A stretch of 16,208 bases of DNA from a virus (IMGVR_UViG_2778261227_000006); one strand, 5' to 3'. Shown: positions 1 through 16,208, counted from the stretch's first letter. The notes: generated by a model not told the origin, from the sequence alone. Program-made: numbers and translations.

Positions 1-104
1 GATGAAGCAACGCGGTTAATGGCCATTGCGGCGGCACCGGGCACCGCCGTTCTGCTGATACGGCTGAGGTTTTCAACGGCCTGCTCAAGACCTTTTATGG
101 CCAT
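1..104 (-). CDS. Z: Head completion / tail attachment protein Z, N-terminal part (gene runs off the window start)
   Basis: ATG at 104..102 on minus strand; translation MAIKGLEQAVENLSRISRTAVPGAAAMAINRVAS matches my recollection of lambda gpZ N-terminus; starts 11 nt after the FII stop as in lambda. Confidence 0.8.
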   Translation of the reverse strand, partial: MAIKGLEQAVENLSRISRTAVPGAAAMAINRVAS

Positions 105-115
105 ACATCCCCCTT

Positions 116-469
116 TCAGCGGCGACGGTTAACGGCAGGCGGTACGCCCCGCCCAAGCCAGAGATGACAGCTTCCGCCATCATCCGGCGAAATCCGGTCT
201 ATCCAGAAGTTTTCCTCACCGATGGTCAGCGTGTCGCCGCGCCGCAGCTGCCGCACATCATCAGTCCGGACAAACAGGGACGGGCTGGAGCCTTCAACGC
301 GCACGCCCTGTCCGGCATAGCTGATATTTTCAGGGTCATCAAAAACACCACGTATCACAGCACCGGACTGCTCACCGGATGTCATGGTGGCTGACGTTCC
401 CATGTACCCGCGTATCGTTTCATCGGCGCGGGCAATGGCAGCATCGAACAGGTTATCGAAATCAGCCAC
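116..469 (-). CDS. FII: Head-tail connector protein FII (117 aa)
   Basis: ORF-track protein MADFDNLFDAAIARADETIRGYMG...HLWLGRGVPPAVNRRR is near-identical to lambda gpFII as recalled; start codon here reads GTG (plus cac at 467-469) preceded by GGGAGG Shine-Dalgarno; follows FI stop by 11 nt. Confidence 0.9.
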   Translation of the reverse strand: MADFDNLFDAAIARADETIRGYMGTSATMTSGEQSGAVIRGVFDDPENISYAGQGVRVEGSSPSLFVRTDDVRQLRRGDTLTIGEENFWIDRISPDDGGSCHLWLGRGVPPAVNRRR

Positions 470-480
470 AGCGCCTCCCG

Positions 481-876
481 TTATTGCATTCTGGCCAGGC
501 CGCGCTCTGTCATTTCAGCTGCCACACCGGCAGAGACACGGAACGCCGTTCCCGGCAGCACAAATGCCACAGCCTCATCCCGCGTGGCGTGAAGTGCATC
601 AGTATGCAGCGTCACCAGTGCCACAACCGTGACCAGATCAGCCGTATCAGTCACGGTATCCGGCTGCGCTGATACAACCTCATTTTCATGTCCGGTCAGC
701 GCATTTTCCGGGCTGACAGATGTGTCCTGACCAGCAGCGTCATCCGTGTCATCAAGCTCCTCTTCCAGCTCTGCCACACGGAGTGCCAGTTCTTCTTTCG
801 TCCCCGTCAGGCTGACATCACGGTTCAGTTGCTCACCCAGCACCTGAAGACGGGCAATCAGTTCATCTTTCGTCAT
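481..876 (-). CDS. FI: DNA packaging protein FI (131 aa from ATG at 876; track ORF extends upstream)
   Basis: Protein from MTKDELIARL... to ...TERGLARMQ matches lambda gpFI; ATG at 876..874 preceded by GGAGGAG SD; ORF-track start at 915 is an upstream extension. Confidence 0.88.
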   Translation of the reverse strand: MTKDELIARLQVLGEQLNRDVSLTGTKEELALRVAELEEELDDTDDAAGQDTSVSPENALTGHENEVVSAQPDTVTDTADLVTVVALVTLHTDALHATRDEAVAFVLPGTAFRVSAGVAAEMTERGLARMQ

Positions 877-917
877 GGACTCCTCCACAGAGAGAAAATG
901 GCCCCGAAGGGCCATGA

Positions 918-1943
918 TTACGCCAGTTGTACGGACACGAACGCATCAGGGTCAGCCAGCAGCATCAGCGGTGCTGACTGAATCATGGTGAACTCACGCG
1001 CCGGATCGCCAGTGGTCACCCAGTTTTTCGGGTAGCGGGCAGAGGCGTTAATACCTTCGCGCTGTGCGTCCGCATCCTGAATGCAGCCATAGGTGCGCAG
1101 ACCGCGTGCCTGAGTGTTCCCCAGCACCATCGTGTTGTCCGGCAGGAAGTTCTTTTTGACGTCGTTTTCCACGTACTGTCCGGAATACACGACGATCGCC
1201 GTATCGCCATACATCCCCTTATAGGACACCGCTTCGCCCAGGTCTTTTACCGCTGTCTCCAGCTCGGAATGAGAGCCGCGACGGGTATCCAGCTTCTCCT
1301 TGACGGCTTTGAAGGAACGGAACAGCGCCCAGCCTTTCGGATCAAACACGATGATATTCACCACACCGCTGGCGTTCAGCGCGTAGGCTTCGATATCGTC
1401 GGTCGGGTCATACGTGGACTTGTCACGCTTGCTCCACTCCGTACCGCCGGACTGCGTGATGTTGTTCGCCACACTGCGGCCCATATCCACTTCAACCGGA
1501 TCGAAGGCTTCACCGGTCATGGTATATTTGCCCTTAAGCACGGCAGAAACGGCCTGCATCTCTTCGACCTGAGCAATGGCCAGCTCTTCGTCTCGCATGT
1601 TCTGCAGGATGATGCGACGGCGGCGGTAAGCCGGGTCCGCCAGATTCTGTGGATCTTCATCCGGCAGGCGACGCAGGGTCATCTGCGGATTCACCTCATG
1701 CTTCGGCTTGACATATCCCGGTGTAAATTCAGAGGTGGAGCCGCCACGGGAGCGGATAACCTCACCGGAAACAATCGGCGAAACGTACAGCGCCATGTTT
1801 ACCAGTCCCGGAATTTGTGAGAGATAGACTTTCTCCGTGGTGAAGGGATAGCTCTCACGGAAAAAGAGACGCAGAAACAGCGGATCAAACTTAAATTTCT
1901 TCTCATTTGCCGCCAGCAGCTGGGCGGTTGTGTACATCGACAT
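918..1943 (-). CDS. E: Major capsid protein E (341 aa)
   Basis: Protein MSMYTTAQLLAANE...DPDAFVSVQLA near-identical to lambda gpE; ATG at 1943..1941; the track start at 1970 is a GTG (plus cac) 9 codons upstream and is rejected. Confidence 0.93.
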   Translation of the reverse strand: MSMYTTAQLLAANEKKFKFDPLFLRLFFRESYPFTTEKVYLSQIPGLVNMALYVSPIVSGEVIRSRGGSTSEFTPGYVKPKHEVNPQMTLRRLPDEDPQNLADPAYRRRRIILQNMRDEELAIAQVEEMQAVSAVLKGKYTMTGEAFDPVEVDMGRSVANNITQSGGTEWSKRDKSTYDPTDDIEAYALNASGVVNIIVFDPKGWALFRSFKAVKEKLDTRRGSHSELETAVKDLGEAVSYKGMYGDTAIVVYSGQYVENDVKKNFLPDNTMVLGNTQARGLRTYGCIQDADAQREGINASARYPKNWVTTGDPAREFTMIQSAPLMLLADPDAFVSVQLA

Positions 1944-1978
1944 AAAAAAATCCCGTAAAAAAAGCCGCACAGGCGGCC
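1944..1978 (-). terminator. Intrinsic-terminator-like hairpin with two U7 runs in the D-E intergenic spacer
   Basis: Minus strand reads GCCGC-CUGU-GCGGC (5-bp GC stem, 4-nt loop; plus 1964-1977) followed directly by UUUUUUU, ACGGGA, UUUUUUU and then the E ATG. Confidence 0.4.
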
Positions 1979-1998
1979 TTTAGTGATGAAGGGTAAGG

Positions 1999-2331
1999 TT
2001 AAACGATGCTGATTGCCGTTCCGGCAAACGCGGTCCGTTTTTTCGTCTCGTCGCTGGCAGCCTCCGGCCAGAGCACATCCTCATAACGGAACGTGCCGGA
2101 CTTGTAGAACGTCAGCGTGGTGCTGGTCTGGTCAGCAGCAACCGCCAGAATGCCAACGGCAGCACCGTCGGTGGTGCCATCCCACACAACCAGCTTACGG
2201 GTGGAGGTGTCCAGCATCAGCGGGGTCATTGCAGGCGCTTTCGCACTCAATCCGCCGGGCGCGGTTGCCGTATGTGCCGGGTCACTGTTGCCCAGCGGCT
2301 GGTAATGGGTAAAGGTTTCTTTGCTCGTCAT
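1999..2331 (-). CDS. D: Head decoration protein D (110 aa)
   Basis: Protein [12 protein letters not shown]...FAGTAISIV matches lambda gpD; two ATGs (2337 and 2331); second chosen to give the 110-aa lambda product, with AAGGGA SD upstream. Confidence 0.92.
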
Positions 2332-2340
2332 AAACATCCC

Positions 2341-2946
2341 TTACACTGGTGTGTTCAGCAAATCGTTAACGGCATCAGATGCCGGGTTACCTGCAGCCAG
2401 CGGTGCCGGTGCCCCCTGCATCAGACGATCCAGCGCAGTGTCACTGCGCGCCTGTGCACTCTGTGGTGCAGCTGCCAGAATGCGGCGGGCCGTTTCCACG
2501 GTCATACCGGGGGTTTCGGCCAGCACGCGGGCCTGTTCTTCGCGTCCGTGAGCCTCCTCACAGTTGAGGATCCCCATAATGCGGCTGTTTTCTGCCGCAA
2601 CCGCTGCGGTGATCTGCGCGTTCACATCCGGCTGCGCCGCGCTGGCGTTTTCGCCCTCCGTCGCTGGCACCACGTCAGTAACGTCAGCCTGCGAAGCAGT
2701 GGCTGAAACAGTTGTTGATTGAGTCTCTTTGGTCATTCGCCCTCCTGAGAGACGGGATTTACGTGCATCCAGTGCATCACGCATGACGGTGATCGCATCG
2801 GTGCTGTTAACAAGTTCATCAGCCAGTCCGGCATCAATGGCCTCCTGACCGCTGTACACTGCAGCCTCTGTATCCAGCACAGCCTGCACAGACAGGCCGG
2901 TATATGCCGACACCTTCTGCGCAAACATCTGGCGGGTTGCGTCCAT
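2341..2946 (-). CDS. Nu3: Scaffolding protein Nu3 (201 aa), in-frame internal start nested in C
   Basis: ATG at 2946..2944 (plus cat) in the C frame; product MDATRQMFAQKVSAYTGLSVQ... shares the C terminus with C; 201 aa equals the lambda Nu3 length as recalled. Confidence 0.8.
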   Translation of the reverse strand: MDATRQMFAQKVSAYTGLSVQAVLDTEAAVYSGQEAIDAGLADELVNSTDAITVMRDALDARKSRLSGGRMTKETQSTTVSATASQADVTDVVPATEGENASAAQPDVNAQITAAVAAENSRIMGILNCEEAHGREEQARVLAETPGMTVETARRILAAAPQSAQARSDTALDRLMQGAPAPLAAGNPASDAVNDLLNTPV

Positions 2947-3640
2947 CCGGGACTGCAGTGTCTCCCGGACGTCATCCGGAAGATGGCTGTAGGGGTTGCC
3001 ATCCACCTTATGGCTGCCGCTGTAAATCAGCGTGATTTCCACACCCTGTTTCTCCAGCGCAGCACCGTAATTACTGTGAGCCATCATGACGCCGATGGAG
3101 CCTGTCCGGGCGGTCTGCGTGACCAGACGCCGGGAGGCGGCACTGGCAAGCAGCTGACCTGCACTGCAGTTCATGTCGTTGGCCAGCGCCCATACCGGTT
3201 TTATGTCACGCACACGGGCGATGATGTCAGCGCAGTCAAATGCCCCCGCCACCATCCCGCCGGGCGTGTCCATATCGAGCAGAATGCCGTCCACCATCGG
3301 ATCGCTGGCAGCCTGTTGCAGACGGGCGATAATGCCGTTGTAACCGGTCATCCCCGAATGCGGCTGCAGCGCCCGCGTCCGGCTGACCAGCGTGCCGGAA
3401 ACCGGCAGCACGGCGATGCCGTTCATGACCTGATAACTGCGGGCCTGTCGTGGTCCGTCATCATCACCGGATAACGCCAGCGTCGCGGGTGTCTCCGGGG
3501 CAGTCAGGCTGTCACCGGACACCGCATCTGTCAGGCGGCTGATCCCAAGCTGGCCTGCTAGCGCACAAAAGAAAACCCGCGCATAGGCGGGTTCAAGCAT
3601 CAGCGGCTCATTAAAGGCCATGCTGGCAATATGCGGGAGA

Positions 3641-3660
<20 letters not shown>
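2341..3660 (-). CDS. C: Head maturation protease / scaffold C (439 aa, ClpP/SppA-like serine protease family)
   Basis: Protein from (V)TAELRNLPHIASMAFNEPLMLE... matches lambda gpC; start is GTG at 3660..3658 overlapping the B stop; the track ORF (477 aa) begins at an upstream TTG and is rejected. Confidence 0.9.
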
Positions 3661-7341
<3,681 letters not shown>

Positions 7342-7367
<26 letters not shown>

Positions 7368-7887
7368 TCAGCAACCCCGGTATCAGTTCATCCAGCGCGG
7401 CTGCTTTGTTCATGGCTTTGATGATATCCCGTTTCAGGAAATCAACATGTCGGTTTTCCAGTTCCGGAAAACGCCGCTGCACCGACAGGGGGATCCCGTC
7501 GAGAATACTGGCAATTTCACCTGCGATCCGCGACAGCACGAAAGTACAGAATGCGGTTTCCACCACTTCAGCGGAGTCTCTGGCATTTTTCAGCTCCTGT
7601 GCGTCGGCCTGCGCACGCGTAAGTCGATGGCGTTCGTACTCAATAGTCCCTGGCTGGAGATCTGTCTCGCTGGCCTGCCGCAGTTCTTCAACTTCCCGGC
7701 GCAGCTTTTCGTTCTCAATTTCAGCATCCCTTTCGGCATACCATCTTATAACGGCGGCAGAGTCATAAAGCACCTCATTACCCTTGCCACCGCCTCGCAG
7801 AACGGGCATTCCCTGTTCCTGCCAGTTCTGAATGGTACGGATACTCGCACCGAAAATGTCAGCCAGCTGCTTTTTGTTGACTTCCAT
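7342..7887 (-). CDS. Nu1: Terminase small subunit Nu1 (181 aa)
   Basis: Protein MEVNKKQLADIFGASIRTIQNWQEQGMPVLRGGGKGNEVLYDSAAVIRWYAERD... matches lambda gpNu1 (winged-helix N-terminus); ATG at 7887..7885; cosB lies immediately upstream. Confidence 0.95.
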
Positions 7888-8064
7888 TGTTCATTCCACG
7901 GCCAAAAACAGAGAAAGGAAACGACAGAGGCCCAAAAGCTCGTTTTCAGCACCTGTCGTTTCCTTTCTTTTCAGGGGGTATTTTAAATAAAAACATTAAG
8001 TTACGACGAAGAAGAACGGAAATGCCTTAAACCGGAAAATTTTCATAAATAGCGAAAACCCGCG
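7888..8064 (-). other. cosB region (terminase small-subunit binding region between cosN and Nu1)
   Basis: Reverse complement of this stretch matches the left-end sequence of lambda as I recall it (GGGCGGCGACCTCGCGGGTTTTCGCTATTTATGAAAATTTTCCGGTTTAAGGCGTTTCCGTTCTTCTTCGTC...). Confidence 0.85.
7912..8024. repeat. Three copies of the cosB R element (gpNu1 binding sites)
   Basis: AGAAAGGAAACGACAG at 7912-7927 and its exact reverse complement CTGTCGTTTCCTTTCT at 7954-7969 (16-bp perfect inverted repeat, 26-bp spacer); a related copy AGAACGGAAATG at 8013-8024. Confidence 0.75.
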
Positions 8065-8076
8065 AGGTCGCCGCCC
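8065..8076. other. cosN cohesive-end sequence (12-nt overhang of the mature genome)
   Basis: Plus strand aggtcgccgccc is the reverse complement of GGGCGGCGACCT, the lambda 12-nt cohesive end; flanked on the right by cgtaacctgtcggatcgccgg, matching the lambda right end (cosQ side). Confidence 0.85.
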
Positions 8077-8109
8077 CGTAACCTGTCGGATCGCCGGAAA
8101 GGACCCGCA

Positions 8110-8275
8110 AAATGATAATAATTATCATCTGCATGTCACAACGTGCATCTACGCCATCAAACCACGTCAAATAATCAATTATGACGCAGATATCGTATTA
8201 ATTGATCTGCATCAACTTAACGTAAAAACAACTTCAGACAATACAAATCAGCGACACTGAATACGGGACAACCTC
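8110..8275 (+). promoter_or_regulatory. Putative promoter/operator region of the ynfO-ydfO cassette
   Basis: 17-bp perfect palindrome ATGATAATAATTATCAT at 8112-8128; ATCTGCAT motif at 8127-8134 and 8205-8212 with inverted copy GCAGAT at 8186-8191; AT-rich; -35/-10 not confidently placed. Confidence 0.35.
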
Positions 8276-8509
8276 ATGTCAACGAAGAACAGAACCCGCA
8301 GAACAACAACCCGCAACATCCGCTTTCCTAACCAAATGATTGAACAAATTAACATCGCTCTTGAGCAAAAAGGGTCCGGGAATTTCTCAGCCTGGGTCAT
8401 TGAAGCCTGCCGCCGGAGACTGTGCTCAGAAAAAAGAGTTTCTTCTGAAGCAAACAAAGAAAAGAGTGACATTACTGAATTGCTCAGAAAACAGGTCAGA
8501 CCAGATTGA
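8276..8509 (+). CDS. ynfO: Small protein with ribbon-helix-helix-like N-terminus (YnfO/YlcI-like, 77 aa)
   Basis: ATG at 8276, TGA at 8507-8509; MSTKNRTRRTTTRNIRFPNQMIEQINIALEQKGSGNFSAWVIEACRRRL... matches my recollection of K-12 Qin YnfO; RHH-like strand-helix-turn-helix pattern. Confidence 0.7.
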   Translation: MSTKNRTRRTTTRNIRFPNQMIEQINIALEQKGSGNFSAWVIEACRRRLCSEKRVSSEANKEKSDITELLRKQVRPD

Positions 8510-8566
8510 AGCAATTTAGATAATCGTGCAGACTACGCCCCCTCATATCACATGGAAGGTTTATCT

Positions 8567-8977
8567 ATGGATCAGGTAGTCATTTTTAAACAAATATTTG
8601 ATAAAGTTCGAAACGATTTAAACTATCAATGGTTTTATTCTGAGCTAAAACGTCACAATGTCTCACATTACATTTACTATTTAGCCACAGAGAATGTTCA
8701 TATTGTATTAAAAAATGATAATACAGTGTTATTAAAGGGCCTAAAAAACATTGTGTCTGTCAAATTTTCAAAGGATAGGCATCTTATAGAAACGACCTCT
8801 AATAAGCTGAAATCCAGAGAGATCACATTTCAGGAATACAGAAGAAACCTTGCTAAAGCAGGAGTTTTTCGGTGGGTTACAAATATCCACGAACAAAAAA
8901 GATATTACTATACCTTTGATAATTCATTACTATTTACTGAAAGCATCCAGAAAACTACACAGATCTTACCACGCTAA
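8567..8977 (+). CDS. ydfO: DUF1398-type protein (YdfO/YbcV-like, 136 aa from second ATG; alternative ATG at 8552)
   Basis: [40 protein letters not shown]... matches my recollection of YdfO/YbcV; GGAAGG SD 7 nt upstream of ATG 8567; stop TAA at 8975-8977. Confidence 0.75.
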
Positions 8978-9128
8978 ACCATAACGTCCGGCTTCTCTCA
9001 CTCCTGAGCCGGACTGCATTGGTTTAATAAAAACCATCAACAATTGTGATTTAGATATTCGGAACCATTCAAATATAACAAAACCCCGTAAAAACGAGGT
9101 TTATGGATAAATTTTATTATTGAATACA

Positions 9129-9302
9129 TCAGATTAAATTAATCTTGACATCATAGCTTTCAAGACCCGTCATTTTTTCCCGTGCGGTAAACTGAATACT
9201 GGTAACTTCTTTCCCGGTCTTTTTCTTAAGTTCAATAATTTTTTTTGTTATATATTCAGAAATATCTGCTTCTGCTTTTGTTTTTAAGTTTTCAATATTC
9301 AT
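9129..9302 (-). CDS. gnsB: GnsA/GnsB family protein (57 aa; not in ORF track because under 60 aa)
   Basis: Manual translation of minus strand: (M)MNIENLKTKAEADISEYITKKIIELKKKTGKEVTSIQFTAREKMTGLESYDVKINLI, closely resembling GnsA/GnsB as recalled; tandem ATGs at 9305 and 9302. Confidence 0.7.
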   Translation of the reverse strand: MNIENLKTKAEADISEYITKKIIELKKKTGKEVTSIQFTAREKMTGLESYDVKINLI

Positions 9303-9473
9303 CATTTCCTCTTTTAGTCTGTTATGACTTTCCAGTTACACAGTAAGTCGATTATATGGTGCAAACGTGTAAAAGATAAGATGAAACATCGCAATAATCA
9401 ACATACGATAGTCTAAATTTTACACAAACAGACAAAGAAAATTTTCCTGAATTATCAATACAATAGCATCAAA

Positions 9474-9704
9474 TCAACTCAAGAGCCTTATTGCTGCTTC
9501 CAGAATTTCTTCTGAAGTAACATGTCGATCCGCGGCTACATAAATGACTTTATGATCTCCGGTCAGAGATGGAAACCCTGCGGCCATTACAGTAAGGTGT
9601 GTTTTTTCGCCATTTGGATATTCACGCATGATGGTGTTAACTCCAGTCATCGCTGGCACTACCACTGCAGGTTCAGAGTTAAAAAAAACTATGATTTTTT
9701 TCAT
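9474..9704 (-). CDS. ynfN: Hypothetical small protein in the position of ynfN (76 aa from ATG 9704; a 51-aa product would start at ATG 9629)
   Basis: ORF MKKIIVFFNSEPAVVVPAMTGVNTIMREYPNGEKTHLTVMAAGFPSLTGDHKVIYVAADRHVTSEEILEAAIRLLS; non-repetitive; sits between cspI and gnsB as ynfN does in Qin; no clear SD at either start, so the start is uncertain and the symbol is positional. Confidence 0.5.
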   Translation of the reverse strand: MKKIIVFFNSEPAVVVPAMTGVNTIMREYPNGEKTHLTVMAAGFPSLTGDHKVIYVAADRHVTSEEILEAAIRLLS

Positions 9705-9746
9705 GATGTTACCGTAGTATGTGAGTATCCATCGAATAGATACCAA

Positions 9747-9770
9747 GCAAAAAAGCTCCCGAAGGAGCCT
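9747..9770 (-). terminator. Rho-independent terminator (UUCG tetraloop hairpin + U6)
   Basis: Minus strand: GGCUCC-UUCG-GGAGC followed by UUUUUU (plus 9748-9769); lies downstream of cspI and upstream of the ynfN-like ORF. Confidence 0.6.
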
Positions 9771-9975
9771 TCATTTTCACTTTTTTAAATCCAACGACAG
9801 ACGGCTGGCATTTAAGTATTGTGAAATATTATCAAATGTAATCATCATTGATTTACAAAAGATACATTTTGCCCCGAAAGGATTCATGTCAGAAACATCA
9901 AAAGATGATGTTCTATACTGGGAACCATGACAACACGGGCATCTAAAGTGAATATGGTTTGTAATATTGTCTACC

Positions 9976-10188
9976 TCAAAGCGCCACTACATGAACAGCG
10001 GCAGGACCTTTAGGTCCGTTCTCAATATCAAATTCAACTTCCTGATTCTCAGTTAATGTTTTGAAATCGTTGCTCTGAATTGCTGAGAAATGGACAAACA
10101 CATCTTTGCTGCCATCTTTCGGCGTGATGAAACCAAAACCTTTTTCAGGGTTAAACCATTTCACTAAACCAGTCATTTTGTTAGACAT
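9976..10188 (-). CDS. cspI: Cold-shock protein, CspA family (70 aa, CspI-like)
   Basis: [70 protein letters not shown] with the KGFGFI and VFVHF RNP motifs; ATG at 10188..10186; long AT-rich 5' leader upstream. Confidence 0.9.
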
Positions 10189-10551
10189 AATTATTACCTT
10201 TTGAAGAAATTAGCCCTTGGGCAGAATGGTCCGAAAAAAAATATCAGAGAGAAAAACCAACAAGGAAATCTCAAGAGGTACAAATAATAAAATTATAACA
10301 ATGACTGCTTCAGATAAATTTGTAACAAACCAGAACACCATTAACGCATGATTAACCACCCATAGCAAGGATTACTTTTGTAAAGAAAAACACAGCAATG
10401 AAAGAATAGCTTTATTTATTAATAATAACGTGTCATTCTGATTAAGACCTTTTATCTTACCCTTAAGATTTCAGGAATTTTGGCTCATGGAAGAGTCCTT
10501 TTTATTTAAATTTTACATTCCGCGATGTAAATGTTCCGATTTAATATTACC

Positions 10552-11575
<1,024 letters not shown>

Positions 11576-11579
<4 letters not shown>

Positions 11580-11887
11580 ATATATTTATGATGAGGACGC
11601 TCGTGCTTATTGGCAGGATTTTCAATCTTAAAGGAGTACTGATGCTGCAGATAAGACTCAACTTTTTCTGACAATTTTTCTGCTACTTCCAGGAAGACTT
11701 GCCGGACGCTCCTTCTGGCTGCTGCCTCATAAAACTCCAGCGCAGCTCCTTCAACACGGTCCATGGCGACATCCAGGTCAAAAATTTCACCGTCAAAGCG
11801 TTCTTTGTCCTGTAAGGCTACAGTTACCGTAACTTTATTCTCAAAATTACGGACTCCTTTCACAACCAGTTCATAGTCTTGAGTCAT
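11576..11887 (-). CDS. ydfR: DUF1327-type protein (YdfR-like, 103 aa) inserted between holin and endolysin
   Basis: MTQDYELVVKGVRNFENKVTVTVALQDKERFDGEIFDLDVAMDRVEGAALEFYEAAARRSVRQVF... matches my recollection of K-12 YdfR; ATG at 11887..11885, 5 nt after the holin stop. Confidence 0.75.
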
Positions 11888-11891
11888 TGGA

Positions 11892-12107
11892 TTACTCTCC
11901 TCTCGCAGCCTTACGCCTGTCTTCTTTAATCTTGAAATAAAGATTTGTCAGATACGTCAGCAGGCCAAAAACCAGGCTACCCAGCACACCGATTGCAGCC
12001 CACTGTGACGGAGTTACTTTATCGAGTAACTGCAATGCCCAGAAACCAGCATTACCCGCCGATGTGCCATAGGCAACACCTGTTGTTAACTTATCCATTG
12101 ATTTCAT
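11892..12107 (-). CDS. essQ: Class II holin / pinholin (S21-like, 71 aa) with dual-start motif
   Basis: [71 protein letters not shown]: two TM segments, charged C-terminus, Met1-Lys-Ser-Met4 dual start (ATGs at 12107 and 12098); track ORF start at 12182 rejected. Confidence 0.88.
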
Positions 12108-12326
12108 ATCCTCACCCCGATGTACACGGATGGTGCAATATGTTTGAAAAGATCGGAGTCTACGGGGTAGTTTTGACAGCACACGTTGTTCTCAACGGCG
12201 CTAAAAAAACATACACATTAAAAATGTGGGTAATTATTTTGAAAGAAAGTCATATATAAAATAATAATACGAGAAATGTTTTCATATTTAGTGTACTGTA
12301 TACGGCCATTTATACAGGAAAAGCCT

Positions 12327-12497
12327 ATGTCAGAACGTAAAAACTCAAAATCACGCCGTAATTATCTCGTTAAATGTTCCTGCCCAAACTGCACCCAAGA
12401 GTCAGAACACAGTTTTTCAAGAGTACAAAAAGGTGCCCTTTTGATCTGCCCTCATTGCAACAAAGTATTCCAGACAAATCTTAAAGATGTAGCCTGA
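12327..12497 (+). CDS. Small zinc-ribbon-like protein (56 aa), antisense to the late operon
   Basis: ATG 12327 preceded by AGGA SD (ACAGGAAAAGCCTATG); MSERKNSKSRRNYLVKCSCPNCTQESEHSFSRVQKGALLICPHCNKVFQTNLKDVA with two CxxC pairs 20 residues apart; TGA at 12495-12497; hairpin/terminator about 60 nt downstream. Confidence 0.5.
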   Translation: MSERKNSKSRRNYLVKCSCPNCTQESEHSFSRVQKGALLICPHCNKVFQTNLKDVA

Positions 12498-12556
12498 TTG
12501 ATTTTATTAGTAACAAGTATTTTTTATATTTTAATAATATATTTAAAGCAGATAAT

Positions 12557-12580
12557 AAAAAACCCGCCTGAGCGGGTTTG
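12557..12580 (-). terminator. Rho-independent terminator (strongest on the minus strand; possibly bidirectional)
   Basis: Stem AAACCCGC/GCGGGTTT (12560-12567 / 12572-12579), loop CTGA; on the minus strand the hairpin is followed by UUUUUU-AUUAU. Confidence 0.6.
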
Positions 12581-12860
12581 AGATTGTGGTGCTTTTTGTG
12601 GGAGTCATCCACTTACGCACTTTGTTTTGCCATGCCAGCAGTTAGCTTCTGCTGTAAAACTATTCATGCAGCAAACCTGCACTTCACCACAATGGTTAGC
12701 ATACTTTTCCTGATTAAGATTTTGCCAAATATGCTAGCCATTGTTTCATGTATTGGACCTCCTTACTTTTTATTAAAGAGATCCAATATTCACTACTCTG
12801 TCCGTATCTCTACTCAGGCATCAGCCTTCTTCGTTATCGTATACAGACGAGCGATGAATT

Positions 12861-13076
12861 TTAATCAGTAATGATGACATTTGCTGCTGCAGGACCTTTA
12901 GCACCACTCTCTATAGAGAAGGTAACCTTTTGACCTTCAAATAAGGTTCGATAATTATCATTCTGAATCGCAGAAAAATGCACAAACACATCTTTACTAC
13001 CATCAACAGGAGAAATAAAGCCGAAACCTTTATCAGCGTTAAACCATTTTACTAAACCAGTCATTTTATTTGACAT
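12861..13076 (-). CDS. cspB: Cold-shock protein, CspA family (71 aa, CspB-like)
   Basis: [71 protein letters not shown]; ATG at 13076..13074; TAA at 12861-12863. Confidence 0.9.
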
Positions 13077-13376
13077 TCTACATTCCTTAACTTGAGCCTT
13101 TCGGCATAAATGGTTTGCATAACAGAAACGACTTCGTACTTAATTGGAGAGACTCAAAGAAGGAATAAGTGAATAACACCTGAAATGAGAACTGCTTTAG
13201 TAAACTACTTCGTATATCGTCTGTTCTTCAAACCGACGCAATCATTAACGCATAGTTGAACATATGAAGCAATGTTTATTTTAGACATCCAGCCATCTTC
13301 AACCCCATCAAAAAACTATAGCTTTCTTCAGGAACGTGTGTATAGTGCGCCAAGTTATCAGTATTAAGGAATTTTT

Positions 13377-13589
13377 TTGTCCCGTAAAATGACAGGAATT
13401 GTCAAAACCTTTGACGGCAAAAGCGGCAAGGGTCTTATCACCCCATCCGATGGTCGTATCGATGTCCAGCTTCATGTCTCAGCGCTCAATCTCCGCGATG
13501 CAGAAGAAATTACCACCGGATTACGCGTGGAATTTTGCCGGATAAATGGTCTGCGTGGCCCTTCAGCTGCCAATGTTTACCTTTCATGA
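13377..13589 (+). CDS. cspF: Cold-shock-domain protein (70 aa, CspF/CspH-like), TTG start
   Basis: (M)[69 protein letters not shown]; AAGGA SD at 13366-13370 sits 6 nt before TTG 13377; divergent from cspB. Confidence 0.85.
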
Positions 13590-13643
13590 GCTATATTAAA
13601 GCTTTAATTTCAGGCCCCATCGGATCACACATGGAGAGTTTTT

Positions 13644-14010: not shown

Positions 14011-14763
14011 TTATCTCGTCACCTTCCTCAATTGCGCTTCCGCGTATGCTTCTTCCTGCCAGCACTTTGTTACCAGTTTACCAATGACGTCCGCATACCC
14101 CTTATACCACTGATAATCGGTCAGGTCTGGTACCAGCTTCTGGACATGACGTCGTGCCAGCGTGGTCGGTAAACGACTAAACCGGTTTCCATTACAACGC
14201 CCACAAATCTTATATACCGGTACGCCATGAAACCGGGTTCTTTTTTCATCCAGAACAATCCCTTTACCCTTACACCCTCTGCACGCTGTGCTGGCTTCGC
14301 CCTTACCATGGCAATGCTGACATAGTTCCTTCACCCATTCTTCCTTGATTACAGATTCCCCGCGTCTGTAGTGTTTCACCACTTCGCGCAATACATTATA
14401 AAATCCCGTACCTGAACAATGCTCACAGCGAGCCTTACTTGCCGCAGACCTGGAGTAATCAGCAAAGGCAAAACTCACGAGGTAAGGAATAATCTGTAAC
14501 CGGATTTCTTCACTCAATTTGTTCAATGTCGGGTTATCCAGTGCCATCGCGTAATTTAGCAGGCCTTCAATCGCAAACTGAGGGTCCTGAACACCAACTT
14601 TTGCCAGAAATAAGGCCAACCCAAGTGGTGCTTTCGACTGCACCATCCCCTGCGCTGCCATTACATCCGTAATTGTTAAACAACCGGTGCCTGTCGCTGG
14701 AGCGTCATCGCTCAATTTTGGAGATTTTGGGGAGTAATATTTTGGTAAGGCTTCAAGGTTCAT
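14011..14763 (-). CDS. quuQ: Late-gene antiterminator Q (250 aa, Qin/phage-21-type)
   Basis: MNLEALPKYYSPKSPKLSDDAPATGTGCLTITDVMAAQG... with C-terminal Cys/His cluster (CEHCSGTG, CQHCHGKG, CRGCKGKG, CGRCNGN); ATG at 14763..14761; track start at 14793 rejected. Confidence 0.85.
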   Translation of the reverse strand: MNLEALPKYYSPKSPKLSDDAPATGTGCLTITDVMAAQGMVQSKAPLGLALFLAKVGVQDPQFAIEGLLNYAMALDNPTLNKLSEEIRLQIIPYLVSFAFADYSRSAASKARCEHCSGTGFYNVLREVVKHYRRGESVIKEEWVKELCQHCHGKGEASTACRGCKGKGIVLDEKRTRFHGVPVYKICGRCNGNRFSRLPTTLARRHVQKLVPDLTDYQWYKGYADVIGKLVTKCWQEEAYAEAQLRKVTR

Positions 14764-14776
14764 GCTCGTTCTCCAC

Positions 14777-15826
14777 TTACGCCAGTACGCCAATTGCCAG
14801 CGCGCGATCGATAAAACGAAATATCAGCTCCAGTTGGGAGCCATACTTATCTTCAAATGCCACTGTATCCGTATGCAGCTCGTTGTGATGCTTTCTGCAC
14901 AAAGGCAACACAAAGAGATCATGTGCTTTTGTTCCCATTCCGCCCTGCCCGTGACCAATCAGATGATGCGGATCGTCGGCTGGCATACCGCAGCAAGCAC
15001 ACGGCTGTGTCTTAACCCAACGTGTGTATTTCTCCTTAACCCAGCGGCGACGTTTAGGCAGCTTCATGAAAGATTCCGGAGACTCTGGATCAACGGTGAT
15101 GCTTACCACCGTCTTTTCCTGTGGTGATTTTTGTTGCTGGTGGGCGTAAGGCAACGGTGCAAGATTTTTTGTGCGTTGTTTCAATATGCTGGTGGCGGTC
15201 TGCTCTCCCGGTACGATGTCGCTTTCGCGGTACACCGAGCAGATTTTTTCCGCTGGTAATCCCAGCGAACGACGCGATACAGCCTCAGGTAGTGCATCCA
15301 CCACCTGATTGCAGACCGCCCACCAGGATAATTCAGCCAAAGATAATTCCCGCTCCTGCGTACCGCTTATTGCGTGACGGATGACGTCAATCACCCATGC
15401 TGTCAGATTTTGTTGAGCAAGCAGCTCCAGTGATTCCGATGTCTGGTCACGCAGTTGGTTGTCGCAGTGCCAGCACAACACCATTGCGCCGGTACCATAA
15501 CGGTGAATGACTGTTTCAGTGTGATGGTAATCGCCATTAGGCCACTGGCAGGATGTAACATGACGTAATAGCCAGTCGGACAATGCGCCAACGCCGCCAG
15601 CAGCACGAATCACCCGTTCGTTACTAAAAAACGGCAGCAATGTTTTGTCTTCCGCCAGCGGCTGGCGAACGGCAGGAACGACTCCGGATGGCAGATTACG
15701 CATGCTTTTTGGTTCCGGTTCCACCAGCACTCGAGGATTATGAAATATCTGTATGGATTCACGGCCCGGCTTAAGGACCACCAGCCCAAGCTCAGGCACC
15801 AGAACAGGTCTAAGTAATACCCGCAC
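14777..15826 (-). CDS. ydfU: DUF968-type protein with HNH-like Cys/His motif (YdfU-like, 349 aa, GTG start)
   Basis: GTG at 15826..15824 preceded by GGAGGT SD gives 349 aa; C-terminal motif CACCGMPADDPHHLIGHG...LCRKHHNELH; stop 13 nt upstream of the Q start. Confidence 0.75.
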   Translation of the reverse strand: MRVLLRPVLVPELGLVVLKPGRESIQIFHNPRVLVEPEPKSMRNLPSGVVPAVRQPLAEDKTLLPFFSNERVIRAAGGVGALSDWLLRHVTSCQWPNGDYHHTETVIHRYGTGAMVLCWHCDNQLRDQTSESLELLAQQNLTAWVIDVIRHAISGTQERELSLAELSWWAVCNQVVDALPEAVSRRSLGLPAEKICSVYRESDIVPGEQTATSILKQRTKNLAPLPYAHQQQKSPQEKTVVSITVDPESPESFMKLPKRRRWVKEKYTRWVKTQPCACCGMPADDPHHLIGHGQGGMGTKAHDLFVLPLCRKHHNELHTDTVAFEDKYGSQLELIFRFIDRALAIGVLA

Positions 15827-15827
15827 G

Positions 15828-16208
15828 TTACCTCCAGATCCGTTGCTGGAAAGTGCGGGACGCACGTGGTGGGCGTTCGGAATAAGGCAGCCTGACAGAG
15901 ATTATCCAGTGCCGATAGTCGAGACTGAGAGCTTTCTTAACCTCGAACCCGCGCCTGCGGTAAGAATGAATCAGCCATTCGGCCTGTTCTGCAGTGCATG
16001 GAGGGTGCTGGAACCATTCAGACTTGAATGCGTGAGAATACCGCCCGTGCGTGCAGGCAAGAACGGGCGAATTATCAGAATTGTAATATTTTGCGTTGCG
16101 TGCCATCGGTTTTCTCCGGTGGCACGGTGTTTGAACCGCCCCGGGTTTCCTGGAGAGTGTTTTATCTGTGAACTCAGGCTGCCAGATCATCGTTTCCGAT
16201 GGAAGCAT
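15828..16208 (-). CDS. Hypothetical protein upstream of ydfU (start uncertain: ATG at 16106 gives 92 aa; frame stays open to the window edge)
   Basis: Open frame ending TAA at 15828-15830, 1 nt before the ydfU start; candidate start MARNAKYYNSDNSPVLACTHGRYSHAFKSEWF... with GGAG about 7 nt upstream; not recognised. Confidence 0.4.
   Translation of the reverse strand: MLPSETMIWQPEFTDKTLSRKPGAVQTPCHRRKPMARNAKYYNSDNSPVLACTHGRYSHAFKSEWFQHPPCTAEQAEWLIHSYRRRGFEVKKALSLDYRHWIISVRLPYSERPPRASRTFQQRIWR

Follow-up and report, generated by a model that had tools for sequence, protein, structure and literature searches.

YdfU, a DUF968 protein encoded directly upstream of Q in Qin-type prophages, has a predicted YbcO-type His-Me finger and a conserved N-terminal lobe

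What is the role of the protein encoded immediately ahead of the Q antiterminator in a Qin-type prophage? The locus analyzed here lies in a 16,208-nt stretch of viral DNA (IMGVR_UViG_2778261227_000006; hereafter the window), in which an earlier note, made from the sequence alone, had described a 349-amino-acid DUF968 protein with an HNH-like Cys/His core and an unassigned function. The sequence confirmed the open reading frame, which is on the minus strand and ends 13 nt before the ATG of Q (Table 1). Megablast matched the locus at 99.9-100% identity to ydfU-ydfT as annotated in Qin-type prophages of E. coli; the gene is the already catalogued Qin-prophage ydfU. The assignment to DUF968 was also upheld: Pfam placed residues 160-346 in PF06147 with 256.8 bits against a gathering cut-off of 27.8 (E 1.4e-76), and PHROG 96, named 'HNH endonuclease', spans the full length of the protein. 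An exhaustive search at E≤1e-3 returned 2885 matching clusters, counted as representatives at 50% identity, and the motif residues are conserved across them; the observation is far beyond chance. Full-length relatives include PdcB of phage P1 and proteins of Vibrio, Klebsiella, Serratia, and Yersinia phages.

A longer product of 362 residues could be read from an upstream GTG at 15865, but we favor the 349-residue form because all homologs start at M-R-x-L-L, matching position 15826. There is little room on either side of the gene: the upstream 92-amino-acid ORF terminates 1 nt ahead of its start, and only the short spacer separates it from Q. The coupling of ydfU to Q described in the earlier note is thus seen at the level of close operon spacing. 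Scans for promoters and terminators around ydfU gave matches at chance level only, with 6 terminator-type matches found versus 3.1 ± 2.0 expected. A terminator-like hairpin with a T-rich tail lies at 14825-14843 on the minus strand, within the 3' end of ydfU and ~50 nt ahead of its stop codon. In the adjoining Q protein, residues 158-203, beside the Antiterm domain, match the DnaJ CXXCXGXG zinc-finger domain with 35.2 bits against a Pfam cut-off of 32.7.

Table 1 Features of the ydfU locus in the window and of the encoded protein (residue numbers refer to YdfU).
Feature	Coordinates	Strand	Basis and remarks
ydfU coding sequence, 349 aa plus TAA, GTG start	14777..15826	-	Translation, E. coli matches, homolog N-termini
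ydfU start codon GTG	15824-15826	-	Direct read
ydfU Shine-Dalgarno GGAGG	15831-15835	-	Direct read; TAA of the upstream ORF sits between GGAGG and GTG
ydfU stop codon TAA	14777-14779	-	Direct read
ydfU-Q spacer, 13 nt, GTGGAGAACGAGC	14764..14776	-	Direct read; includes the GGAG Shine-Dalgarno of Q
Q antiterminator ydfT/quuQ, 250 aa, PF03589, next gene of the operon	14011..14763 (ATG 14761-14763)	-	
Upstream 92-aa ORF, phrog_1212, no Pfam match	15828..16106 (TAA 15828-15830)	-	
N-terminal lobe, residues 1-226: small beta region, helices, beta-hairpin-helix	15149..15826	-	AF2
N-site motif, residues 93-123: C93-Q-x6-H101 ... C118-W-H-C121-D122-N123	15458..15550	-	Conservation, AF2
Flexible basic linker, residues 227-245	15092..15148	-	AF2; pLDDT <50 at residues 227-240
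C-terminal YbcO-type His-Me (HNH) finger, residues 246-349	14780..15091	-	hhalign, BLASTP of homologs, Pfam DUF968 and HNHc_6
Predicted catalytic core, residues 276-318	14873..15001	-	YbcO alignment, conservation, AF2 strands and helix; roles taken from the family

An AF2 model of YdfU built from 38 diverse sequences (pLDDT 85.8) consists of two lobes and a disordered linker. The C-terminal lobe carries the two Cys/His motifs that had been quoted as HNH-like, at residues 276-293 (CACCGMPADDPHHLIGHG) and 309-318 (LCRKHHNELH), and hhalign, BLASTP, PHROG 96, and the beta-beta-alpha arrangement in the AF2 model substantiate that reading as a YbcO-type His-Me finger. Using hhalign and a YbcO-family profile of 79 sequences (PDB 3g27), the lobe matched over 74 columns with 90% probability and an E-value of 1.7e-6. 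In this profile comparison, H288, C310, H313, and H314 of YdfU align with H32, C55, C58, and H59 of YbcO. BLASTP alone sufficed to match several YdfU homologs to YbcO, with E-values as low as 8e-8. AF2 predicts strands at residues 285-288 and 306-309, separated by a long loop, and a helix at 311-319, with H288 ending strand 1 and a local pLDDT that is mostly 80-97 in this predicted structure. The helix-borne H314 and H318 and the hairpin-flanking C276, C279, C310, and H313 that mark a His-Me finger are present and conserved, and D303 is invariant in the family. By analogy with the family, C276, C279, C310, and H313 are predicted to be zinc ligands, H288 the general base, and H314 and H318 the metal ligands. 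The window protein has every canonical residue, and 33-34 of the 44 sequences of a broader alignment conserve them; most of the exceptions are truncated or chimeric proteins or belong to the PdcB clade discussed below. Collectively, sequence comparison and modeling support the idea that the last ~100 residues of YdfU are a complete YbcO-type His-Me finger.

The link to YbcO required profile-profile comparison, because sequence searches of the PDB with full-length YdfU, the C-domain, and the family profile returned no match; Pfam DUF1364, the YbcO family, likewise gives no match on YdfU. The similarity to HNH folds that the earlier note had put up for checking was borne out by profile comparison and AF2. 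Foldseek of the whole model against the PDB yielded weak, non-significant matches only, the best being a Cas5-HNH Cascade chain (E 1.2). The top ranks were HNH proteins (Cas5-HNH, IscB, Cap5, ScoMcrA, and Gme HNH, the last with a target-normalized TM-score of 0.48), none of them significant, and 3g27 was absent from the matches. Residues 268-328 also scored just below the cut-off of HNHc_6 (PF16784; 26.3 bits versus 26.6), a label that is precomputed for many close homologs, and below that of RecA_dep_nuc/Ref (PF16786; 17.8 bits versus 26.9, E 0.0037). The C-lobe is found on its own as well (about 180 amino acids) or preceded by a different N-terminal module, for example a LexA winged helix. 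Judged from these sequences it behaves as a portable, putative nuclease module, a pattern that fits a nuclease-plus-targeting design. One protein of 240 amino acids (P0168) combines a LexA-type winged-helix DNA-binding domain with a C-terminal putative nuclease domain of the YdfU type and may be a variant of this module that is targeted to particular sequences.

The earlier note missed the larger and more conserved N-terminal lobe, which has a Cys/His site of its own. Modeled alone, the lobe had a pLDDT of 85.8 and a pTM of 0.70, and Foldseek found no structural relative of it (best E 2.9 in the PDB and 0.26 in BFVD). Its Cys/His site, here called the N-site, is the most conserved feature of the YdfU family: C93 and C118 never vary, intact members have either Cys or His at positions 101 and 121, and W119 and D122 are nearly invariant. 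In the AF2 model the N-site ligands surround strands at residues 105-110 and 113-118 and a helix at 119-125. The topology is the same as that of the C-lobe zinc site, and the C-Q-x6-[C/H] spacing resembles YbcO. Conservation and modeling suggest that C93, H101, C118, and C121 form a Cys/His4 site that would bind zinc. We considered a tandem duplication, in which the N-site would be a second, degenerate His-Me/YbcO-like finger, and rejected it: hhalign gave no significant match for residues 60-140, with probabilities of at most 0.6% whether the target was YbcO, its family, NinG, or YdfU's own C-domain. The conserved His at the end of strand 1 is absent from the N-site. Because of these two findings we class the N-site as a predicted zinc site in an orphan fold. 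An Orf/NinB-like N-terminal domain, as in the 'DUF968' of Curtis et al. (2014), was rejected as well (hhalign against lambda NinB, 0.3%; BFVD NinB, E 1.8).

The nuclease-like character of the C-lobe has been recognized in print. Jablonska et al. (2017) placed YdfU by name in His-Me finger group 7 together with DUF1364/YbcO (PDB 3g27), gave RusA, Q, and an antirepressor as its neighbors, and proposed a role in recombination like that of NinG and Ref (PMC5714182). Curtis et al. (2014) discussed 'DUF968' HNH fusions (PMC4118853), and fusions to Erf, Rad52, and RusA have been described together with a proposed role in recombination (PMC4118853, PMC5714182). Because the group 7 placement and the recombination hypothesis were published in 2017, the HNH reading of YdfU is not new, and the description of an HNH-like DUF968 protein before Q, accurate as it is, was already known and adds nothing to these publications. 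The statement that its function is unassigned also stands: a 2024 paper on the y-ome still lists ydfU among uncharacterized genes (PMC11551758), and our literature search found no experiment on YdfU and none on a metal-dependent nuclease activity of PdcB or YbcO. Our analysis adds that the protein has two lobes, that its N-lobe combines an orphan fold with a conserved N-site, and that PdcB is predicted to be inactive; it further contributes the neighborhood statistics for Q, RusA, and NinG, the portability of the C-domain, and the negative result for tandem fingers.

Comparison with known phage proteins places YdfU among several related designs. The C-domain aligns with the whole fold of YbcO from the DLP12/phage 82 prophage. 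YbcO, however, is a single domain of 96 amino acids, whereas YdfU adds the 226-residue N-lobe with its Cys/His site and the flexible linker, and the first zinc knuckle is CxxC in YdfU and C-x7-C in YbcO. Lambda NinG/Rap is, like YdfU, a His-Me finger protein encoded in the nin region shortly before Q, and a published role for this nuclease in cutting recombination intermediates is cited in PMC4118853 and PMC7556043. Membership of YdfU in the NinG/Rap family (PF05766) was rejected, with no Pfam match at E≤1 and an hhalign alignment of 13 columns at the zinc knuckle (5.8-10.8%). NinG differs in being 204 amino acids long with a different N-terminal part, and lambda lacks rusA whereas YdfU phages usually have it. 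P1 Ref (RecA_dep_nuc, PDB 3plw) and the HNHc_6 Orf-HNH proteins of Listeria phages are likewise small zinc-containing phage His-Me fingers tied to recombination, but both matches on YdfU fall under the curated cut-offs and YdfU has no Orf/NinB-like N-domain.

We surveyed the neighborhood of YdfU in 80 loci from different Enterobacterales genomes. A Q-type antiterminator lies directly downstream in 76 of them, and this protein is of the PF06530 type in 32, the phrog_753/DUF1133 type in 19, the PF03589 type in 18, and the PF06323 type in 7, such that four or more unrelated Q families are found behind YdfU. In 9 loci the Q slot is filled by a family of ~200 amino acids that falls in PHROG 753 ('Q-like') without a Pfam match and resembles DUF1133 proteins in an N-terminal W..W..GG motif (L036, L047 at 6053-6661, L053, L068, L071, L074, L076, L081, L085, L094, and others similar). 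RusA is present within 5 kb of YdfU in 60 of the 80 loci; it is upstream on the same strand in 57, directly adjacent in 17 of these, and directly downstream in 3. Lambda NinG, NinB, or a separate ybcO were found in none. The usual gene order is O ... RusA - (Rha/ANT-type protein) - YdfU - Q, and individual phages have RusA-YdfU-Q (mEp390), O-YdfU-RusA-Q (Serratia BZS1), RusA-regulator-YdfU-Q (cdtI), and 92aa-YdfU-Q (HannyBb, Qin-like). Metagenomic relatives have Q plus RusA nearby, with a DUF1064 protein instead of RusA in one lineage.

YdfU is therefore a regular neighbor of RusA and fills the niche of YbcO beside rusA in DLP12, where ybcO adjoins rusA. The niche is the same in that YbcO, too, is encoded in the nin region beside rusA and upstream of Q, and the two genes are mutually exclusive in these loci. 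The absence of NinG from all 80 fits NinG and YdfU as alternatives. The frequent presence of RusA led us to reject YdfU as a replacement for the junction resolvase. The Qin-type prophage in the window belongs to the minority without rusA nearby, so the partnership is not obligatory. Relatives of the 92-amino-acid ORF occur in 20 of the 80 loci, often as a 66-amino-acid form just upstream of RusA, and this ORF may belong to the same module. The heterogeneity of the upstream genes (the 92-amino-acid ORF, PdcA, Rha/ANT-type proteins, O, or RusA) led us to reject a conserved small partner or immunity protein encoded there. Assignment to a defense system was rejected too, PADLOC having returned only a PglZ match at E 0.078.

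Our preferred reading, held with moderate confidence, is that YdfU is an accessory nicking or structure-specific endonuclease for branched DNA that acts alongside RusA, with the C-lobe cutting and the N-lobe targeting. T4 endonuclease VII (gp49), a His-Me finger enzyme that contains zinc and removes branches from phage DNA ahead of packaging, is a model for YdfU in function only, no sequence or fold match to it having been obtained. The comparisons above establish which gene this is, its domain homology, its conserved residues, and its neighborhood; the metal binding, nuclease activity, substrate, and biological role that we infer from them are as follows. In the beta-beta-alpha-metal finger of the C-lobe, H288 would activate water, H314 and H318, with the invariant D303, would hold a catalytic Mg2+ or Mn2+, and C276, C279, C310, and H313 would hold a structural zinc. 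The N-lobe with its Cys/His4 site would most likely supply recognition of the substrate or of a partner. As the last delayed-early gene of the rightward operon, ydfU would have its product made together with Q, and YdfU would nick or trim branched replication and recombination intermediates together with the RusA junction resolvase. Phage DNA would thereby be debranched before late gene expression and packaging, in analogy to T4 endonuclease VII and lambda Rap. The protein would be accessory and not essential, as P1 pdcB is nonessential (PMC10695390). Counting against this model are the location of the most conserved residues in the N-lobe, the lack of significance of the Foldseek matches to HNH proteins, and the missing rusA of the window prophage.

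The relatives of YdfU include two clades in which the finger has decayed in opposite ways. P1 PdcB is 26% identical to YdfU over 91% of the YdfU length, shares the two-lobe layout and the N-site, and is already noted as similar to YdfU in the P1 GenBank record. Its gene lies directly upstream of that of the late-gene activator Lpa, as ydfU does of Q. The P1 order differs, however, in that pdcB sits behind phd-doc-pdcA with no adjoining rusA, and a C1-controlled promoter lies between pdcB and lpa. In the PdcB clade (P1 pdcB, L003 3905-4948; P0199, P0211, P0266), H287, H288, H314, and H318 are all lost, whereas the fold, the four zinc cysteines, and the N-lobe are retained. The loss of these histidines predicts that PdcB is catalytically inactive, and judged by its sequence the P1 protein, labeled 'HNH endonuclease' in RefSeq, is probably not a nuclease. 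A second clade has kept the catalytic histidines and lost the zinc ligands at C279, C310, and C313 (L006 4950-5957 of Vibrio phage Her; P0164, P0182, P0203, P0223, P0231, P0234, P0236, P0245, P0250). The N-site is intact in both of these clades. That the PdcB clade has given up its catalytic histidines and kept the rest of the protein suggests that the conserved function of the family may not require cleavage.

These observations bear on the possibility that YdfU is mainly a non-catalytic factor that binds DNA or protein, a regulator or scaffold at the early-to-late transition with the N-lobe as its core and the His-Me finger as a binding module. Consistent with this idea, the N-site (C93, C/H101, C118, W119, H/C121, D122) is conserved more strictly than the catalytic histidines, the PdcB clade dispensed with those histidines while keeping the fold and the zinc cysteines, the gene stands directly before a late activator in lambdoid phages and P1 alike, and one family member carries a transcriptional-regulator annotation (PMC5714182). 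However, the window protein and most intact relatives keep the complete catalytic set, apart from Q the gene most strongly associated with it encodes a DNA junction resolvase, and the position before Q is elsewhere common to unrelated nin-region genes such as lambda ninI. We consider a mainly non-catalytic role unlikely. A further proposal, which we regard as quite improbable, is that what defines the YdfU/PdcB family is the N-lobe, with its orphan fold and predicted zinc binding, instead of nuclease activity, and that this lobe has a conserved role linked to the early-to-late switch. By recognizing a specific DNA structure of replication or recombination, or RusA, the transcription apparatus, or another partner, the N-lobe could then couple DNA status to late activation. 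A family of this kind would explain the position before the late activator with any Q family and in P1, as well as the discarding of catalysis by the P1 clade and the N-site as the most conserved element.

If YdfU is a nuclease, as in our preferred model, its target need not be phage intermediates. It might be an offensive or competitive enzyme directed, possibly by a partner, against host or rival-phage DNA in takeover, superinfection exclusion, or counter-defense. The weak match to RecA_dep_nuc points to the family of P1 Ref, which is guided by RecA; the gene is accessory, with antirepressor-type accessory genes as frequent neighbors; and K-12 ydfU is silenced by a strong upstream Rho-dependent terminator and has been grouped with 'toxic prophage genes' (PMC9160355). 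Yet the match to Ref is under threshold, no PADLOC defense model was matched, and there is no conserved immunity-like small partner. By contrast with variable moron and defense islands, moreover, YdfU has a stable place in a replication/recombination module beside RusA. We judge this use of the enzyme to be rather improbable.

Free-standing HNH genes of phages are often either selfish homing endonucleases or packaging cofactors associated with terminase, and P1 pdcB is one gene away from pacA and pacB. For YdfU we rate either role as highly improbable. The gene keeps a fixed position between RusA or antirepressor genes and Q even though the adjoining Q proteins belong to unrelated families, which does not fit homing to a target site, and the Pfam scan detected no DNA-binding modules of the homing type. 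In the window, ydfU is set apart by the lysis cassette and accessory genes from the terminase, which is of the lambda Nu1/GpA type and requires no HNH cofactor. Neither role agrees with the missing catalytic histidines of P1 PdcB.

The reading of YdfU as a branched-DNA endonuclease offers a clear assay target: a predicted H288-dependent nuclease that would act on branched DNA, bind two zinc ions in each chain, and interplay with RusA. Knowing what YdfU does would close a gap in the 'y-ome' of E. coli and in what is understood of the lambdoid nin region, and its wide distribution makes the family a reasonable target for simple biochemical study. Of 5426 complete E. coli genomes, 5219 contain DNA similar to a 2.2-kb ydfU-Q query, often at more than one site, and in 1544 of these the match covers most of the query. 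Many Stx2 phages have a ydfU-type gene immediately upstream of Q and hence of stx. An allele of ydfU was a marker for hemolytic uremic syndrome in a genome-wide association study, an association that is probably due to linkage.

The prophage in the window (1-13600) is a fuller Qin-like prophage than the K-12 remnant. By comparison with the annotation of the matching strain F41, this part of the window encodes a head decoration protein, an S49 protease, a portal, a head-tail joining protein, a GpA-type terminase, and nohA, in addition to the cspI, cspB, and cspF cold-shock cluster, gnsB, ydfO, and the lysis cassette. Among the homologs, several joined proteins call for caution. An apparent YdfU-RusA fusion (P0055) was rejected as a real architecture, being the product of a deletion in a single contig, and three others (P0003, P0004, P0006) are YdfU-Q read-through fusions. 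In six further proteins (P0145, P0156, P0165, P0189, P0190, P0256), the first 115-270 residues of a YdfU homolog are joined to tail-fiber or other structural sequence; these look like chimeras of assembly or recombination and would pollute automated counts of domain architectures.
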